Shown one piece after another: positions 8,196 to 63,809 of a DNA stretch of 64,000 nt; the first letter of the stretch is position 1, and every line of letters begins with the position of its first letter. Origin of the DNA: Naegleria gruberi (Eukaryota). Below the pieces are notes generated by a model that was not told where the DNA came from, ran no database searches, and saw nothing but the letters and a program-made list of their open reading frames with translations. The stretch lies in the NCBI GenBank assembly GCA_000004985.1, contig GG738893.1. The stretch is one strand, 5' to 3'. The translations under genes and the position numbers were made by a program.

Positions 8196-10775
8196 ATGTC
8201 GACACTATCAACCGAGTCTTTTTACACAACTCTTGAACAAAAATTCTCTACAGTCTTTTTCTTTCTGAATGGGGTTGTTGCTAACTCATCCAATCCATTC
8301 CGAATTTTGATTAATGATGAGGTAAATAATTGCTCTCTGAAAATTTATTTTACCATTTATCCGAAAGTGTGTTTTAAAGCTTGAATCCAACTGTAATAGT
8401 GTTGTCTATGCAACACAAGTCGAAGAACCAAGAGTTGGTGGCCATCACTTTATTAGAGTGAAAGCTGATTGGTAAGTTTCTCAAAGTTTAGTTTTCTTTA
8501 AACCAAAGAAGTCCATTGTTGAGATCAGGATCAGGTTTATCGAGCCAATACGAAAGATATAATTTGAGTATTAATGGATTCTTTATTTTGATTGATTGTA
8601 CTGAAGAAATTGGAGGTTCAGATACTGGAATTCGTATCATTCAACAAAAACATGACAATTTTGGACCAAATTATAAGAATTACAAGTTTGGAAATAAGGA
8701 GACTGAGAATGCAATTTTAAAAGGTTTATCATCTACCAGAAATTTAATCAAATCCAATTTACCACCTAAACAACTTGAAGAACAATTGAAAAAACTTGAA
8801 CAATTGTTTAGAAAGGACATTTTGACAAGAGAAGAATTTGAATCTAAATGGAAAATGGTTTACAATCCAGCAAATAGTGGATCAGAAATGACCTATGCCA
8901 CCACTTCTAATAATCAACAAACTAATACACAGAGTAGTGGCAATATGGATGGCCTCACACAAGATCAATTAGATTTACTTTCCAAGTTGAGAGGGTAAGT
9001 ATTGTGAAATTCACTTTCTAAATTGTAACATTTGTAATAGATTGATTGGAAGAGGCATTATCACACAGGAAGAGTACAATGCCAAGCTCAATAAGCTGAA
9101 AGAAGAAAATCAAAAATCCTCCCCTCCAAAACAACCATCTCTTACTCCAGAACAGAAGCAAATGATTGAAAAATTGGAAAGCCTTTTATCAAAGGGAATT
9201 CTCACACAGGAAGAATTCGAAATGAAAAAGAAACAAATTGTTGGAAATAATTCTCAAATCAGCAGCTCTACATCTGGTCAGAAATCTCCAACTGCAGTAG
9301 AAACAATTTCATTTGAAAAGTATGCACAACAATATGAAGATTTAAAGTGCATGATGAATGAATCTCAAAAACACCAAATGAGAACTCTTGAAAGATTTGT
9401 CAACGATGGAATAATTACACAAGACGAATATGAAATGAAAAAGAAAAAAGTTTTGGGAAATCTTTACACTCCAACAAATTGGATTTATCAAAAGCAACTT
9501 TCTGAAAGAGAACAAACCAGTAGCTCTCCATCTTCTCCTTCTACTCCTTCCTCTACAGAATCTCTATCCGAAAGTCAAAAAGAAAGAATTGAAAAATTGA
9601 AAATATCAAAGGAGAAGGGAATTTTAACCAATGAAATGTTCGAATCGAGAATGCAACAAATTTTGGATGAAAACAAGCCAGTTCAAGACACTGAAGATTA
9701 TTCACATCTCACCTCTGATCAACAAAATTATATTGCCAAACTGAAATATTTCAAAAAGATGGGAATTCTTACACCATCCGAATTTGACATTCAAATGGAA
9801 AAAATCATTTCAGACCCTGATAGTGTCAAGACCGGTGCTCTAGTTTCTTCACCTCAAACACCTACAAGTAGTTCATCAAATTCCTCTCCAAAAACCCCAA
9901 CAGACTCCAAGCCATCCACTCCAACCATTATTTCTAACAAGTCAAGTAAGCCATCTACTCCTACTCCTGTCTTTACTTCAGAAGAAGTGGAAACTCCAGT
10001 CACTCCAACTGATAGCTCTCAAAAGAATCAACAAACCAATACAGTTCCAAAATTGGAAGAAAAGAAGCCAACCACACCAGTACCTATCGTTGAAACCAAG
10101 AAAAAACCATCTTCAGAAAAGATTGTTAAGGAAAGTCCAAAAGAAACAACTCCTAAACAATCATCAACACCAATCAGTAGTGGTGCAGAGCAAGATGAAG
10201 AAATTCAAGATCAACTGGAAAGACTCAGATCACTTGTCGATATGGGAATCATCTCAGAGGAAGATTACAAACAAAAGGAAGAAAAGCTCTTGAAGGGAAC
10301 ACCAACCCCTGCATCTCCAGCTGCTACACCAGAAGAATCCAAACCTGTAGTCAATCAACAAGCAACCAATAATCAAGTCAAACAATTGGAAAAGCTCTAC
10401 AATTCTGGAATTATTTCAAAGGAAGATTTTGAGCAAAAAGTCAACAAAATTCTTGGAAAACCTCAAAATGAGACAACCACCACAAAGGTTGAAAGTCCAT
10501 CCTCTCCAAGAAACACCTCAAATGTCAAAGATCAAAATGTTAAAGTAGAATTGGCCAAATTGAAGAAACTTTTGGAGAATGGAATCATTGCACAAGAACA
10601 ATTCGAAATGAAACAATCTAAATTATTGGGCACTTCTCCATCAAGTACCACCACTGAAACTGAATTATCATCAGAACAAGAGGAGCAAATTGCCAAATTG
10701 AAATCCTTCCTTGATGAGGGTCTCATAGATCAGGACGATTATCAAGAAGAGTTGAATAAAATCTTGAATAAATAA
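8196..10775 (+). CDS. SHOCT-repeat protein with about 10 tandem SHOCT-like motifs separated by S/T/P-rich linkers. Exons (5' ones tentative): 8196..8321, 8380..8471, 8512..8994, 9041..10775
   Basis: Ten repeats match the SHOCT (PF09851-type) consensus '(L/I)xKLxxLxxxG(I/L)ITxEE(F/Y)ExKKxK(I/L)LG'. Examples: LEQLFRKDILTREEFESKWKMV, IEKLESLLSKGILTQEEFEMKKKQIVG, LERFVNDGIITQDEYEMKKKKVLG, LERLRSLVDMGIISEEDYKQKEEKLL, LAKLKKLLENGIIAQEQFEMKQSKLLG, IAKLKSFLDEGLIDQDDYQEELNKIL. The 46-bp intron 8995..9040 (GTAAGT...TAATAG) joins ...LSKLRG to LIGRGIITQEEY in frame. The upstream exons (8196.., 8380..) and the 40-bp intron 8472..8511 are inferred only from frame continuity. They encode a non-repeat N-terminal region (FFFLNGVVANSS...GGHHFIRVKAD...NGFFILIDCTEE). 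Confidence 0.6.
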
Positions 10776-10895: not shown

Positions 10896-12181
10896 TTGAA
10901 CTTTTTGTTCAAACCAAAAAAAATGGCTCCACATGCAACTTTATTCTCATCACTTCCCTATGAAATATTCCAACATATTTTATCGTTTGGAGCTGATAGC
11001 GAATTGAAAAATCCATCAAGTAGAAATTCAGATATCCGAATGGTTGCCAAATTTCAATCAATTAATAAGAAAATTTCGAATATGAAGGAAATGCAAGATT
11101 ATTTCAATGCCTTTTGGTGGAAAGTATTCGAAAAGAATTTTGGAATTGGTCAATTATTTGGAAATGATTTGGAGAAACTTCGATTACGAATGATTAAACG
11201 AGACGAAATGAAGAGGAAAATTTTATTAGCAAGTTATATCAAATTTAAACTTTACAAACGACCAAAATATGATCCTAATGCACAACAACAACAAGAGGAA
11301 GTTAAAATAATAGTGCTTGGGGAAGGAGGAGTGGGTGAGTAATAATAATTCTATTATTCGATTCTAATAGAATTTTATTATGGACCTATTTATTTCACAT
11401 TTACCATAATTATGAAAATAAGGAAAATCTGCAATAACCATTTTCTTTATTCAGCATATTTTTATTACTGAATACGATCCGACAATTGAGGATACATACA
11501 GAAAGTATTTTAGGGTTGATGAAGAGCCAGCCATGGTAGAAATTCTCGATACTGCAGGTGAGTTTTTGTAATGTTTGGCAATAATTATGATTAACTAATT
11601 TTGATGATAACTATTAGGACCTGAGGAGTTTTCTAGTAAGTAAATTTAATTAGAAACTCGACTAATATTATGTTAGCATGGAGAGGTAAGAGATTTTATT
11701 TGGGATTGTAATATAATTCAATTAATAATACCTCTTAATAGATCAATATATGAGAGTTGGAGATGCATTTGTAATTGTATGTTCTTCAAGTGATGAAAAC
11801 TCTGTATCAGATATGCGTAGACACGTAGAGAACATGTTACGTTGCAAAGATGTTGAAGTTAATGATAGGCCTGTGGTGTTTGTTTTAAACAAGATGGATT
11901 TATTGGTTAGTGCCAATAGAAATGAAACAATTGATCGTTTTAGACAAGAAGTTAATTCAATTGTTTCAGATAATTCATTATTGAACTATTCCATTATTGA
12001 ATGTAGCGCCAAAAATGGAGAAAACATCGATGCCATATTTGAGGAAACTGTTAGAAAGCAAAGACTTGGTGGAATTGATAATCTTACTTTATTGAAAGGA
12101 TGCATTGAACAAGACATCTCATACATTGAGGAATGTAAAAAGAGGGTACAAGTCAAAAAGAAGAAATGCTCAATAATGTAA
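10896..12181 (+). CDS. Ras-family small GTPase with CAAX box (CSIM) and a ~145-aa N-terminal extension carrying an F-box-like motif. Five exons: 10896..11334, 11423..11557, 11618..11635, 11677..11685 (9-nt micro-exon, tentative), 11742..12181
   Basis: Splicing reconstitutes G1 to G5 in order: [11 protein letters not shown]|[46 protein letters not shown]|GPEEFS|TWR|[13 protein letters not shown]...FVLNKMDL...[18 protein letters not shown]...KKKKCSIM*. Compare H-Ras GAGGVGKSALTIQ...[13 protein letters not shown]...[24 protein letters not shown]...NKCDL...ETSAK...CVLS. Introns are 88, 60, 41 and 56 bp with GTGAGT/GTAAGT donors. The N-terminal exon has [12 protein letters not shown] (F-box-like). 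Confidence 0.7.
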
Positions 12182-12246: not shown

Positions 12247-12365
12247 GGCTACGGCCATATCACGATGAATGCACCTCATCCCGTCCGATTTGAGAAGTTA
12301 AGCATCGTCGAGCCACATCAGTACTGAGGTTGGAGACAACTTGGGAACCTGTGGCGCTGTAGTCT
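12247..12365 (+). rRNA. 5S ribosomal RNA, solitary copy followed by a TTTT Pol III terminator
   Basis: GGCTACGGCCATATCACGATGAATGCACCTCATCCCGTCCGATTTGAGAAGTTAAGCATCGTCGAGCCACATCAGTACTGAGGTTGGAGACAACTTGGGAACCTGTGGCGCTGTAGTC TTTT. The 5' GGCUACGGC pairs with 3' GCUGUAGUC (helix I). The conserved AAGUUAAGC loop C region and the GUACU.GG...GGGAA segment are present. Confidence 0.85.
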
Positions 12366-13646: not shown

Positions 13647-15317
13647 TTATTTCTTTTCCTTTCCACATAAATTTTTGTGATTTGACCAATCCTGCAATTG
13701 GTGTTCTCTGGAACAGTAATATACAGATCTGCATTTAGAGCATTGTTTTAAATTTTGTGTACTATCACAAATAGCACATGCTTTAACTGGTGCCTTGGAA
13801 AGCATTTTTGTTTCTTCAAAGGTTCCAAGTTTTGATGTGCCTGTTTGGAAATTATAAGAATAGAAATTAGAATCATCCATCTTGGAAACATTACTACGAA
13901 GGGCATTTTGCACACGACGTTTTGCATCTACTTATGAAAAACTGGTTGGATTAAATGATCCTTTTCTTTCAAGGTAATTAGCTGCCTTATTCAAGTGAGA
14001 CATTATTTCAGAATGGCTATCCTTATCTTTGGCAAATGAGGGATTGTTCTTGAAGAGAGTTCCGTAGTAATATATTTGAATGGCATCAGCATATCGATGA
14101 ATAGATCCACAATCTTCTGCTGGGCAACAGTTTTCACCATCTTCAACTGTAATAGTTTGATCATTTGAATCCTCAATATTTTCAACTGTGATTTTGTGTC
14201 TGAATGAATCTCCCAAATCATACATGTAAAACATTTCATCTCCAGTCTAATTACATTGTAGTAAAAAGTAAAAAACACATACCTTTTCAAGTAAATGGAA
14301 TAGTTCAACCTTTGTATCATCTGCAGTGTAAATGTTGTGACTAAACTCGTGCATTTTGTCTACAGCTTGACTGTAAATTGGACCAAATACTAGGTCTGGT
14401 TGTGGCATTCTTTGATTTTTAGAGTCTTTCTTTTCGAATGGGATTTTTCTAAAATAGTAGGCATGATAGTTTCGGCACCATCCAAGAACAGGTGAAATAA
14501 CACGATCTTGCAAACTTTGTAGAGTAATAGAACCAGGTAATTTGACTCTTCTCCAAATGTGTGGTCTAAAGTTCAAAACTTGAATTCTCAACTGGTACAT
14601 TTTGCTTCTGAGATGAGTATTTGGTGAGGCAGTGACTTTCTCCACGAGTTCGTCTGCCTTCCTTTCCAGAACGTCCATTCCACCACTGAACATTAAATTT
14701 TGTCTTGCAAACATGAGCTGTTGAACCTGTTCAATACTCAATTCACTCTGATCTTCTCCTTCCACATAATCATCAACTGAACAGAAAATAGATTCCAAAC
14801 ATTTAGCAATTTGGTTGTGAATTTCACCTTTTTGTGCTTTGGAAATTTCTCCAATATCCAATGCAGATTTTAGTGTCTGCACAACAATTTCTCTAATATT
14901 CTTGATTAATTCTCTTTCCTGCTTATCATCAAACACCTTGTCGTGATCACCCAATTTTGCAAAACTAACAAAAGCTTCACCATACAAAACATATCCAGGA
15001 GCAAAACTTGGTTGATTAATAACACATTCTTGTCCACTATTCAGGGCTTTCAATATAGCCAACCTCTTTTCTTCCTTCTCCGAGAGTTGATCAGCCCTTA
15101 TCAATGAAGCCTTGCATCTAGCTTCAAGCAGGAAGGCAAGGTCATCCTTGCTGATGGCAGAATACTTTTCTACATTGCTGTTGGAAAATACCTCATCTAA
15201 CAAAGCTAGCAGGGAATCAACTTGTTCTGGTTTATCCAGTAGAGAAAGTACCTCCTTCTTCTTTTCCAATACATCGGATGAACTTTGTGGTTTGATCGTA
15301 ACTTTGTATTTGGACAT
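13647..15317 (-). CDS. PRiA4b-ORF3-like domain protein with a C-terminal MYND zinc finger. Exons: 14283..15317, then about 13943..14246 (or read through to 13935), and a MYND exon ending 13647
   Basis: The PRiA4_ORF3 signature reads HIWRRVKLPGSITLQSLQDRVISPVLGWCRNYHAYYF ... (36-bp GTATGT..TTAG intron 14247..14282) ... FYMYDLGDSFRHKITVENIE. Compare family consensus IWRRixVPxxxTLxxLHxVIQxAMGWxxxHLHxF ... YxYDFGDxWxHxI. The downstream MYND finger is CAICDSTQNLKQCSKCRSVYYCSREHQLQDWSNHKNLC. The two parts share a frame but are separated by a single TAA (13932..13934); see findings. Confidence 0.65.
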
Positions 15318-15972: not shown

Positions 15973-17367
15973 ATGACCAAGAAGAAAACAGGAATCATGA
16001 CCAACAACGCACCACCATCATCATCACAAATCAAACAACAAGTGCAAGACACAAAAAACCAAACAAGCCTCCTCAAAAAGCAACTCGACTCTATCGTACA
16101 ACAATATGAACAACAATTGGCAAATTTGGAAAAGTTAGAAACTGCCTTGAATGAGAAGGATGAACAAGTCAAAAGTAGAGAAATTCAAGTCGCTCAAAGG
16201 GAACAATCTGTAAAAGATANNNNNNNNNNNNNNNNNNNNNNNNNNNNNNNNNNNNNNNNNNNNNNNNNNNNNNNNNNNNNNNNNNNNNNNNNNNNNNNNN
16301 NNNNNNNNNNNNNNNNNNNNNNNNNNNNNNNNNNNNNNNNNNNNNNNNNNNNNNNNNNNNNNNNNNNNNNNNNNNNNNNNNNNNNNNNNNNNNNNNNNNN
16401 NNNNNNNNNNNNNNNNNNNNNNNNNNNNNNNNNNNNNNNNNNNNNNNNNNNNNNNNNNNNNNNNNNNNNNNNNNNNNNNNNNNNNNNNNNNNNNNNNNNN
16501 NNNNNNNNNNNNNNNNNNNNNNNNNNNNNNNNNNNNNNNNNNNNNNNNNNNNNNNNNNNNNNNNNNNNNNNNNNNNNNNNNNNNNNNNNNNNNNNNNNNN
16601 NNNNNNNNNNNNNNNNNNNNNNNNNNNNNNNNNNNNNNNNNNNNNNNNNNNNNNNNNNNNNNNNNNNNNNNNNNNNNNNNNNNNNNNNNNNNNNNNNNNN
16701 NNNNNNNNNNNNNNNNNNNNNNNNNNNNNNNNNNNNNNNNNNNNNNNNNNNNNNNNNNNNNNNNNNNNNNNNNNNNNNNNNNNNNNNNNNNNNNNNNNNN
16801 NNNNNNNNNNNNNNNNNNNNNNNNNNNNNNNNNNNNNNNNNNNNNNNNNNNNNNNNNNNNNNNNNNNNNNNNNNNNNNNNNNNNNNNNNNNNNNNNNNNN
16901 NNNNNNNNNNNNNNNNNNNNNNNNNNNNNNNNNNNNNNNNNNNNNNNNNNNNNNNNNNNNNNNNNNNNNNNNNNNNNNNNNNNNNNNNNNNNNNNNNNNN
17001 NNNNNNNNNNNNNNNNNNNNNNNNNNNNNNNNNNNNNNNNNNNNNNNNNNNNNNNNNNNNNNNNNNNNNNNNNNNNNNNNNNNNNNNNNNNNNNNNNNNN
17101 NNNNNNNNNNNNNNNNNNNNNNNNNNNNNNNNNNNNNNNNNNNNNACTAAGAAAACAAACACTTCTGATTTGAATTCAAATGTTTTAGGAACAAAATCAA
17201 ATCATTTCAAAGTTAAACTCATATCTAATTGTAATAGTTTAATGATTGGATTTGCACCTAAAAGTATTAATGTGAACGAAACAAATAATAATACAAAATG
17301 TGGATATTATTTATATACTACTACTGGAACCATTTATTCTCAGAATGGAGAATCAAACAAAAGCTAA
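15973..17367 (+). CDS. coiled-coil protein with a C-terminal SPRY-like segment, copy 1 of a local family; interrupted by a 926-bp N-gap
   Basis: The N-terminus is a Q-rich coiled coil (MTKKKTGIMTNNAPPSSSQIKQQVQDTKNQTSLLKKQLDSIVQQYEQQLANLEKLETALNEKDEQVKSREIQ). The C-terminus after the gap reads HFKVKLISNCNSLMIGFAPKSINVNETNNNTKCGYYLYTTTGTIYSQNGE, which is SPRY-like. The middle is unknown (N-run). Confidence 0.5.
   Translation: MTKKKTGIMTNNAPPSSSQIKQQVQDTKNQTSLLKKQLDSIVQQYEQQLANLEKLETALNEKDEQVKSREIQVAQREQSVKDXXXXXXXXXXXXXXXXXXXXXXXXXXXXXXXXXXXXXXXXXXXXXXXXXXXXXXXXXXXXXXXXXXXXXXXXXXXXXXXXXXXXXXXXXXXXXXXXXXXXXXXXXXXXXXXXXXXXXXXXXXXXXXXXXXXXXXXXXXXXXXXXXXXXXXXXXXXXXXXXXXXXXXXXXXXXXXXXXXXXXXXXXXXXXXXXXXXXXXXXXXXXXXXXXXXXXXXXXXXXXXXXXXXXXXXXXXXXXXXXXXXXXXXXXXXXXXXXXXXXXXXXXXXXXXXXXXXXXXXXXXXXXXXXXXXXXXXXXXXXXXXXXXXXXTKKTNTSDLNSNVLGTKSNHFKVKLISNCNSLMIGFAPKSINVNETNNNTKCGYYLYTTTGTIYSQNGESNKS
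16220..17145. other. assembly gap (926 N)
   Basis: Run of n characters. Confidence 1.
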
Positions 17368-17479
17368 TCAATGAATAATAAAAATTTGTTTATGAATATG
17401 ACTGTAAACTTCTTGAAATAACATTATTGAATAACATGATTTATTCTTATTTTGGCTATCGAGATTAAGTTTATTTCTT

Positions 17480-18973
17480 TTACAGGTCATAAATATCTAC
17501 ATGATCTGCTAAATTCATTTCTCGAATGTATTTTTCACCCTCATCGCTTATATTGTTGTCAACTGCGTTAAGTCTTGTTAATTGCTTCATTCCACTTAGG
17601 GCTTTAACGCCTTCGTCACCAATTTCATTGTAACCTATATCTAGAAAAGTTAATTGTTCCATTTCACTTATAAATTTGGCTCCCTCATCTCCAACAGCAT
17701 TGTGATAGATAGAAAGCTGTGCTAGGTGCTTCATTTCACTGATTTGGTTTGCACTTTTCTCTCCAATATTATTATGAGCAATTATTAGATACGTTAAATT
17801 ATCCATTTTACAGATATATTGTATACCTATTGGTGTAATATCAATACTAGAAACATTAAGTTCAGTTAATTGGTTCATTTCACTTATAGATTGGACTCCG
17901 TTATCCCTAATTCGATTATCAGAAATGTCAAGCTTAATTAAATTTTTCATTTGGCTAATGTGAATAGCCCCGTACGGTGTAATCAAATTTTCAGCTATAG
18001 AAAGATGAGTTAATTGATTAAATGATGAAATGTATTTTGTTCCATCCAATCCAATACAACAACTGTTCACATTAAGATCTGTTAATTGTTTCATTTCTCC
18101 AAAACACTTAACACCGTCATTAATAGAATTAAACCCAATATCGAGTTTCCGTATATTCATCATTTCACTAACATACTTGGCACCGTTCTCGCCTATATTA
18201 TTACTAGCAATATCAAGATTAGTTAATTGTTTCATTCCACTAATAAATTTGGCTCCTTCGTCACAAATATTGTTGCCAACAATTTTAAGACCAGTCAACT
18301 GTTTCATTTCACTAATAAATTTTGCTCCATCCATAGTAATTTCATTGGCACGGATATTAAGAAAAGTCAACTGTTCAAGGCCACTAATATACTTGGCTCC
18401 TTCTGGGCCAATATTATTATTAGCAATATGAAGTTGTTTCAATTGCTTCATTTCACCAATATACTTGGCTCCTTCTACACCAATATAATTACCCGTAATA
18501 AGAAGATAAGTTAGTGATTTCAATGATGGTAAATGTTTAGCAATATCAAATCCAAAATAACAGAAAGTCATATAAAGATCAGTCAATTGTTCCAATGAAC
18601 ATATATACTTGAATCCACTTGGATCAATCTTAGAATTAAATTCTATATTGAGTTTTTTCAATTCTTTCATCGAATCCAATATCTCACAATTAAATCCACC
18701 TTCATTCTCTATCACTCTTAGATTTGCAACATTTTCCAAAAACGGCAATTGACCAACCATTTCCAAATCACTACTACGTGTTATCGAGAGGTGTTTACAT
18801 GAATTTTTAATGACATGAAACCACTGTTTGGAAACCAATGCACACCTCTGTACAATAAATTTAAAATCATCGTGAAAAGATAAAATTTCAAAGAGTGAAT
18901 CGTCAGAGAATAGATTATTTTCTTGTATTTTCGAAAATGAAGAAGTGATGGAATGTTTTGGTTGTGTGATCAT
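17480..18973 (-). CDS. F-box-like / leucine-rich-repeat protein (RNI-type 28-residue LRRs, ~14 repeats)
   Basis: 497-aa ORF. The N-terminus has an F-box-like motif (LFEILSFHDDFKFIVQRCALVSKQWFHVI). Perfect RNI-type LRRs follow, e.g. NNIGPEGAKYISGLEQLTFLNIRANEITMDGAKFISEMKQLTGLKIVGNNICDEGAKFISGMKQLTNLDIASNNIGENGAKYVSEM. Confidence 0.8.
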   Translation of the reverse strand: MITQPKHSITSSFSKIQENNLFSDDSLFEILSFHDDFKFIVQRCALVSKQWFHVIKNSCKHLSITRSSDLEMVGQLPFLENVANLRVIENEGGFNCEILDSMKELKKLNIEFNSKIDPSGFKYICSLEQLTDLYMTFCYFGFDIAKHLPSLKSLTYLLITGNYIGVEGAKYIGEMKQLKQLHIANNNIGPEGAKYISGLEQLTFLNIRANEITMDGAKFISEMKQLTGLKIVGNNICDEGAKFISGMKQLTNLDIASNNIGENGAKYVSEMMNIRKLDIGFNSINDGVKCFGEMKQLTDLNVNSCCIGLDGTKYISSFNQLTHLSIAENLITPYGAIHISQMKNLIKLDISDNRIRDNGVQSISEMNQLTELNVSSIDITPIGIQYICKMDNLTYLIIAHNNIGEKSANQISEMKHLAQLSIYHNAVGDEGAKFISEMEQLTFLDIGYNEIGDEGVKALSGMKQLTRLNAVDNNISDEGEKYIREMNLADHVDIYDL

Positions 18974-63720: not shown

Positions 63721-63809
63721 GGGCGGTTAGCTCAGCGGTAGAGCACCGGATTGCAAAGTTAATTGCAGCAGACATCCGATGGTCACGTGTTCGATCCACG
63801 TACCACCCT
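63721..63809 (+). tRNA. tRNA-Cys(GCA): tRNA-Cys (anticodon GCA) with a ~17-nt intron 3' of the anticodon
   Basis: GGGCGGT-TA-GCTC-AGCGGTA-GAGC-A-CCGGA-TTGCAAA-[gttaattgcagcagaca]-TCCGA-TGGTC-ACGTG-TTCGATC-CACGT-ACCACCC-T. D and T arms are canonical and U33 is present. The intron contains TGC complementary to anticodon GCA. One C4:A69 mismatch in the acceptor stem lowers confidence. Discriminator is U. Confidence 0.6.

Follow-up and report, generated by a model that had tools for sequence, protein, structure and literature searches.

A Ras-family GTPase gene of Naegleria gruberi with a 9-nt micro-exon and a conserved N-terminal domain whose first helix resembles an F-box

RhoBTB is an atypical GTPase fused to a Cul3 adaptor, its BTB domains lying C-terminal to the Rho domain, and K-Ras4B, whose tail reads CVIM, is targeted to the plasma membrane by a polybasic stretch together with a farnesyl group, CaaX motifs in which X is Met being farnesylated. 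Both are points of comparison for the gene studied here, which lies at positions 10923-12181 (+) of a 64,000-nucleotide (nt) stretch of Naegleria gruberi DNA (contig GG738893.1 of assembly GCA_000004985.1; "the window" below means this whole stretch, which is AT-rich and eukaryotic, with ~33% GC) and which encodes a Ras-type GTPase preceded by an N-terminal helical domain. In Naegleria, Ras-superfamily GTPases carry the F-box more often than any other accessory domain (Herman et al, 2021; PMC8296547). The same study reported RhoBTB in Naegleria, found the F-box combined with Rab-like, Rho/Rac, Ran and G-alpha domains and Ras with BTB only, and described one F-box Rab-like subgroup with a CaaX motif, proposing GTPase-dependent ubiquitination. 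With such prenylated proteins known in the genus, a prenylated Ras carrying a module for the Skp1-Cul1-F-box ligase (SCF) would not be unusual, contrary to the preliminary description of this locus. In Euglenozoa, the FYVE-F-box-GTPase TbFRP was suggested by its authors to be tied to rapid turnover, and they found no N. gruberi orthologue of it (PMC3593210).

Reading the splice sites from the DNA, we obtained five exons encoding a 337-aa protein. The four introns (88, 60, 41 and 56 nt) run from GT to AG and lie in phase 1 throughout, with GTGAGT, GTGAGT, GTAAGT and GTAAGA as the donors of introns 1-4, and two of the exons are micro-exons, of 18 nt (11618-11635) and 9 nt (11677-11685). The frame opens at the ATG at 10923, the first ATG downstream of an in-frame stop, and closes with the TAA at 12179-12181. 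A Ras-type GTPase with four short introns, the 9-nt exon and the CAAX end CSIM had been proposed beforehand from the letters of the DNA, and all of this holds; the start then given at 10896 is merely the mechanical TTG of the open reading frame (ORF), the ~145 extra residues come down to an extension of ~125, and the 18-nt micro-exon had not been singled out. A second copy of the family within the window was considered and rejected, tblastn matching this locus alone. The gene is laid out as follows:

10923..11334, + strand: exon 1, 412 nt, from M1 to base 1 of the G138 codon, donor GTGAGT; it covers residues 1-125 (N-terminal domain) and the beginning of the G domain.
11335..11422, + strand: intron 1, 88 nt, phase 1, within the P-loop codon G138; GTGAGT...AAG.
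11423..11557, + strand: exon 2, 135 nt, (G)KSAITI...ILDTA(G), with the remainder of G1, switch I/G2 and the G3 motif DTAG.
11558..11617, + strand: intron 2, 60 nt, phase 1, in the Gly60-equivalent codon; GTGAGT...TTAG, with a branch-like ACTAAT motif.
11618..11635, + strand: exon 3, 18-nt micro-exon, (G)PEEFS and base 1 of T189.
11636..11676, + strand: intron 3, 41 nt, phase 1; GTAAGT...GACTAAT...TTAG.
11677..11685, + strand: exon 4, 9-nt micro-exon CATGGAGAG, the rest of T189, W190, R191 and base 1 of D192.
11686..11741, + strand: intron 4, 56 nt, phase 1; GTAAGA...ATAG.
11742..12181, + strand: exon 5, 440 nt, (D)QYMRVG..., with G4 NKMD, G5 CSAK, two C-terminal helices, the polybasic stretch, CSIM and the TAA.

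The spliced product, TWR included, is identical letter for letter to XP_002673033.1 / EFC40289.1 / UniProt D2VS69 (exact-sequence look-up), a protein of N. gruberi NEG-M named 'ras family small GTPase' whose gene lies on a 337-kb scaffold, and its top database match is likewise 'ras family small GTPase [Naegleria gruberi]'. Given this identity the gene model is not new, and the micro-exon is here a confirmation of the GenBank exon structure, not a discovery. The curated Ras inventory of Herman et al (2021; Table S8, Additional file 10; PMC8296547) lists XP_002673033.1 as 'Ras' without a corrected sequence, and neither the public record nor that table annotates the N-terminal domain. What is modestly new is a Ras subfamily, its named members all from Naegleria, that has an F-box-like first helix, has lost the catalytic Gln and bears a K-Ras4B-like tail.

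We enumerated the in-frame GT-AG solutions over 11500-11800 (n = 707) and scored them with a hidden Markov model (HMM) built from five relatives, this gene being left out. The micro-exon solution ranked first of the 707 with 427.8 bits, ahead of the runner-up at 416.4 and of the model that skips the 9-nt exon at 414.9, so that skipping costs 12.9 bits. When the interior of the 106-nt interval (11636-11741) was permuted 2000 times, no shuffle yielded an internal exon with a gain of at least 12.9 bits (maximum 12.7; 26 reached 10 bits). The exon has canonical borders on both sides, TTAG/CATGGAGAG/GTAAGA, with a strong donor and a CTAAT motif upstream of the acceptor; it keeps the frame and adds T-W-R to give ...EEFS-TWR-DQYM..., which restores R191, D192 and the spacing of switch II. 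In the full-length AlphaFold2 (AF2) model, the switch II helix spans residues 188-197, with T189-W190-R191 as its first turn; switch II aligns without a gap to solved M-Ras.

The relatives agree with this structure. Each has exactly three residues at the micro-exon site: AMR in XP_002677816 and contig L003, ALR in metagenomic contig L004 and N. lovaniensis (L001), and ALT in N. fowleri (L002). Two near-identical metagenome contigs, L005 and L007, served as stand-ins for the reference haplotig and paralogue DNA. The paralogue contig L005 is uninterrupted at the site (GAG TTC TCT GCA ATG AGA GAT CAA) and colinear with exons 3, 4 and 5 of the window once joined (GAG TTT TCT ACA TGG AGA GAT CAA). 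The contig L007, a third variant that is 97% identical to the window, shows no change in the micro-exon or at any of the eight splice sites; a 5-nt deletion brings its intron 4 to 51 nt, which fits non-coding sequence. L003, L005 and L007 are N. gruberi-like contigs held in ENA ERZ929261 / ERR1078381 (PRJEB11402), L003 and L005 carrying paralogues of the gene family; judging by these contigs, the PRJEB11402 sample evidently contained a close relative of N. gruberi from the same genus.

The G domain is recognized without difficulty: residues 128-297 match Pfam Ras (PF00071) with 112.4 bits (E = 2.1e-32), the cut-off being 21.6, and all five G motifs are present (G1 GEGGVGKS, switch I/G2 YDPTIED, G3 DTAG, G4 NKMD and G5 CSAK). 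Its closest solved relatives are M-Ras, Rap1 and H/K-Ras (E = 3.7e-36 to about 1e-33). Besides an insertion of ~10 residues between G4 and G5, two extra helices follow the G domain, ahead of the polybasic stretch. Where DTAGQ has the catalytic Gln61, N. fowleri has Leu (DTAGL), and the window gene, N. lovaniensis, L003, L004 and L005 have Pro (DTAGP). Substitutions at Ras Gln61 reportedly reduce GTP hydrolysis. The loss of this residue points to an atypical, probably hydrolysis-impaired member and does not argue against membership of the Ras family. At the other end of the protein, the CaaX motif is conserved across the family, as CSIM, CLFM, CSVM, CNVM, CLLM or CSLM, with one paralogue, in CILN, as the exception, and prenylation is predicted. 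The tail, read from sequence, is:

12137..12178, + strand: predicted membrane-targeting tail, with the polybasic stretch at 12137-12166 and the CaaX motif CSIM at 12167-12178.

Ahead of the G domain lies the part of the protein that had been labelled F-box-like:

10923..11297, + strand: N-terminal helical domain, residues 1-125 (conserved blocks, profile search, AF2 model).
10953..10991, + strand: F-box-like first helix, L11-G23 (conservation, sub-threshold Pfam matches, hhalign, AF2 helix 13-23).

A profile of this domain built from four sequences and run against 1.84 billion representative proteins gave 22 matches at E ≤ 0.001, and every match long enough to show its continuation enters a Ras-like P-loop. 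The named members of the family all come from Naegleria, with at least six paralogues in N. gruberi (a count that takes in the entries of the curated Herman et al table) as well as members in N. lovaniensis and N. fowleri. The conserved blocks read LPxEIxxxIL(S/E)F, QS(L/I), YFNxFWW and (M/L)KR. The first helix fits the F-box motif L-P-x-E-(I/L)-x-x-x-I-(L/F), with P12 and I19 invariant and L11 and E14 at least 90% conserved (18-19 homologues). AF2, run on an 18-sequence alignment, returned a confident helical domain (predicted local distance difference test, pLDDT, 88.1; predicted template modelling score, pTM, 0.77) with helices at 13-23, 31-47, 49-53, 55-73, 77-92 and 96-110.

Two alternative transcript structures have to be weighed against a single gene that includes the 9-nt exon. 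According to one, already raised in the preliminary description, exon 1 would be part of another transcript, located upstream, with the Ras gene beginning downstream of 11340; nothing was found in its favour. Exon 1, however, holds not only the extension but also the first strand and half of the P-loop, therefore the G domain cannot begin downstream of it and would be incomplete without it. A single exon spans the extension together with G1, G2 and G3 in N. lovaniensis, N. fowleri and L004, and the profile matches run on from one domain into the other; between the two closest N. gruberi paralogues, identity is 65% in the extension and 59-65% in the G domain. On these comparisons the separate transcript is refuted, its probability being practically nil. 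(L004 carries an in-frame TAA within the G domain at ~880-900, VNDKY*LREIR, and may be a pseudogene or contain an assembly error.) According to the other alternative, the 9-nt segment would be no exon, a single 106-nt intron (11636-11741) being removed to give ...EEFS-NQYM..., or its inclusion would be optional. Skipping leaves the frame intact, and it has a public counterpart in XP_002668509.1 (333 aa, 98% identical, on a 9.6-kb contig that is presumably the other haplotype), which reads EEFS---NQYM; moreover, the 26-nt spliced exon3-exon4-exon5 junction had no match in a scan of metagenome contigs. These points weigh against inclusion. Skipping would, however, remove three residues of the switch II helix that are kept in every relative and in every solved Ras, at the HMM cost given above and in spite of a gain that none of the shuffles equalled. 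It would also leave unexplained the strong donor, acceptor and upstream CTAAT motif around the 9 nt, the colinearity of 12 nt across the exon with the uninterrupted codons of L005, the retention of exon and sites in L007 despite the deletion in the following intron, and the presence of the exon in the scaffold-copy model XP_002673033.1. A literature search for Naegleria micro-exons turned up nothing specific. Introns of such small size are usual in the clade: L003 has introns of 42 and 48 nt, and those of the orthologues from N. lovaniensis and N. fowleri measure ~50-65 nt. We thus regard skipping as improbable and inclusion of the 9-nt exon in the mature transcript as very likely; the absence of these three residues from switch II makes a misannotation very probable for the haplotig model XP_002668509.1.

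The nature of the N-terminal domain is less settled than its place in the gene. Across the 19 members examined, the sole recurrent Pfam signal comes from F-box families: PF12937 (F-box-like) is the commonest match, in 12 members at E ≤ 1 (best E, 2.2e-4), and PF00646, PRANC and F-box_4 appear in 4, 3 and 2 members. A small F-box alignment gave an hhalign probability of 93% over 22 columns, helix 1 only, a value tempered by the make-up of that alignment, which combines canonical sequences, in part entered by hand, with three Naegleria F-box GTPases (PMC8296547). When the profile was compared with Protein Data Bank (PDB) sequences nothing significant was found (best E, 0.24), five of the eight weak matches being F-box proteins (FBXL5, MAX2/D3) aligned at their F-boxes. 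In addition, sister GTPase families of N. gruberi have recognizable F-boxes at the same N-terminal position. Several results weigh against an F-box. The Pfam gathering threshold is reached by none of the 19 members, all matches being sub-threshold: the window protein, for which an F-box score had been suggested as a check, obtains 11.6-11.7 bits with PF12937 (cut-off 24.3) and 12.9 with F-box_4 (cut-off 32), and the best family member 21.1 against the same PF12937 cut-off. The matches are confined to positions 1-26 of the 47 of the profile, that is to helix 1, and orthologues carry insertions of 25-45 residues straight after this helix, which is atypical for an F-box. The search of 1.84 billion representatives brought back family members and no generic F-box protein, a Foldseek comparison of the N-terminal model with PDB structures returned nothing at E ≤ 0.001, and the curators of the Naegleria GTPases left the domain column blank for XP_002673033.1 and its paralogues XP_002677816.1 and XP_002673837.1 (Herman et al, 2021; PMC8296547). 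These results would suit a helical module without Skp1 binding, so far seen in Naegleria and environmental sequences only, which might act in regulation, dimerisation or effector docking, its LPxEI helix being a chance or relic resemblance; the protein would then be a farnesylated atypical Ras with an additional domain. Such a module is a possibility to be taken seriously, at a lower probability than the F-box. We favour, with some reserve, a probable divergent F-box followed by a helical linker. The earlier F-box-like label is weakly supported: the motif of helix 1 is nearly invariant in the 19 members, and Pfam does not recognize an F-box above its threshold in any of them.

Taken together, the features make it reasonably probable that the protein, one of a Ras subfamily with named members from Naegleria only, is held on the membrane, stays mostly GTP-bound and recruits Skp1/SCF through an F-box-like head. 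The protein is predicted to be farnesylated, since the X of its CaaX motif is Met, and the farnesyl group and the polybasic stretch would together hold it on a membrane. With Pro instead of Gln at position 61 (Leu in N. fowleri), poor GTP hydrolysis is probable, and the protein would be mainly GTP-bound. Skp1/SCF would be recruited by the N-terminal domain, which is most likely an F-box with a helical linker. By analogy with RhoBTB-Cul3 and with other Naegleria F-box-GTPases, the G domain could then recognize substrates, in a nucleotide-dependent manner, for a membrane-bound ubiquitin ligase, or else the abundance of the protein itself could be set by SCF-dependent turnover rather than by GTPase-activating proteins. 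In its most specific form, the first option would have an SCF ubiquitin ligase, anchored by a farnesyl group, use the Ras domain as its nucleotide-gated substrate receptor; a GTP-locked Ras, joined rigidly to the F-box through a helical linker, would present effector-like partners to Skp1-Cul1 at the membrane. We consider this form speculative and rather unlikely; if true, it would extend the GTPase-dependent ubiquitination proposed in Naegleria to the Ras family proper and provide a compact test case for GTPase-coupled ubiquitination.

Intron positions were also compared among relatives. The position of intron 1 is common to L003 and L005, and that of intron 2 to N. lovaniensis and N. fowleri, which carry a homologous 19-nt micro-exon matching exon 3. 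L003 has a 42-nt intron at a position adjacent to intron 3, and intron 4 was seen in this gene alone among the relatives examined. Across orthologues and paralogues, the switch II intron positions vary by 1-3 nt, as listed below for the window (11558-11741), L001 (3648-3775), L002 (3676-3807), L003 (2539-2580), L004 (749-804) and L005 (1050-1099):

Ras codon 59, phase 1: L004 and L005.
Ras codon 60, phase 1: window, N. lovaniensis and N. fowleri.
Between Ras codons 65 and 66, phase 0: L003.
Ras codon 66, phase 1: window.
Ras codon 66, phase 2: N. lovaniensis and N. fowleri.
Ras codon 69, phase 1: window only.

To judge from these positions, the differences look like intron sliding or repeated gain within a very small interval.

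Several other features of the window were recorded. A complete 5S rRNA gene at 12247-12365 (+) (Rfam RF00001, 103.1 bits, E = 1.8e-21) begins 65 nt past the Ras stop codon and has the same orientation. Upstream, the ORF at 9042-10775 (+), 577 aa from a mechanical TTG start, contains at least seven SHOCT repeats (PF09851, E = 7.9e-46) with the motif GI(I/L)TxEE(F/Y)ExK, a striking copy number for a single eukaryotic protein; the same motif occurs in the ORF at 8516-8998. The ORF at 14247-15317 (-) gives a match to the PRiA4_ORF3 domain (PF07929, E = 8.9e-11), of a family named for a bacterial plasmid ORF. GC content drops to 0.166 at 16001-18000, against ~0.33 in the rest of the window. Finally, a tRNA at 63721-63809 (+), 89 nt long, is found by Rfam (50.4 bits) and not by ARAGORN, and probably contains an intron.

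Compared with the described systems, the window protein resembles the Naegleria F-box-GTPase fusions in its layout, a G domain of the Ras superfamily being directly preceded by a conserved extension that bears an LPxE(I/L) helix, and one F-box Rab-like subgroup among them in its C-terminal CaaX. It differs from these fusions in that its F-box signal stays below the Pfam thresholds and that the profile of its extension does not retrieve them. With TbFRP, which comes from another branch of Discoba, it shares a Ras-like GTPase and an F-box (here F-box-like) N-terminal to the G domain; TbFRP, in contrast, has a FYVE domain for phosphatidylinositol 3-phosphate targeting, a Rab18/Ypt6-like G domain and no CaaX. 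Like RhoBTB, it would combine a small GTPase domain of atypical chemistry with an adaptor module of a cullin-RING ligase, but its F-box-like head lies N-terminal to the Ras domain and would recruit Skp1-Cul1 rather than Cul3. The polybasic stretch and C-x-I-M tail resemble those of K-Ras4B, whereas Pro in place of Gln61, the G4-G5 insertion, the two extra C-terminal helices and the 125-aa N-terminal domain set the protein apart from M-Ras, Rap1 and K-Ras4B alike. Overall, an F-box-Ras would plausibly fit the known Naegleria theme of F-box-GTPase fusions, to which the Ras case would be an addition.

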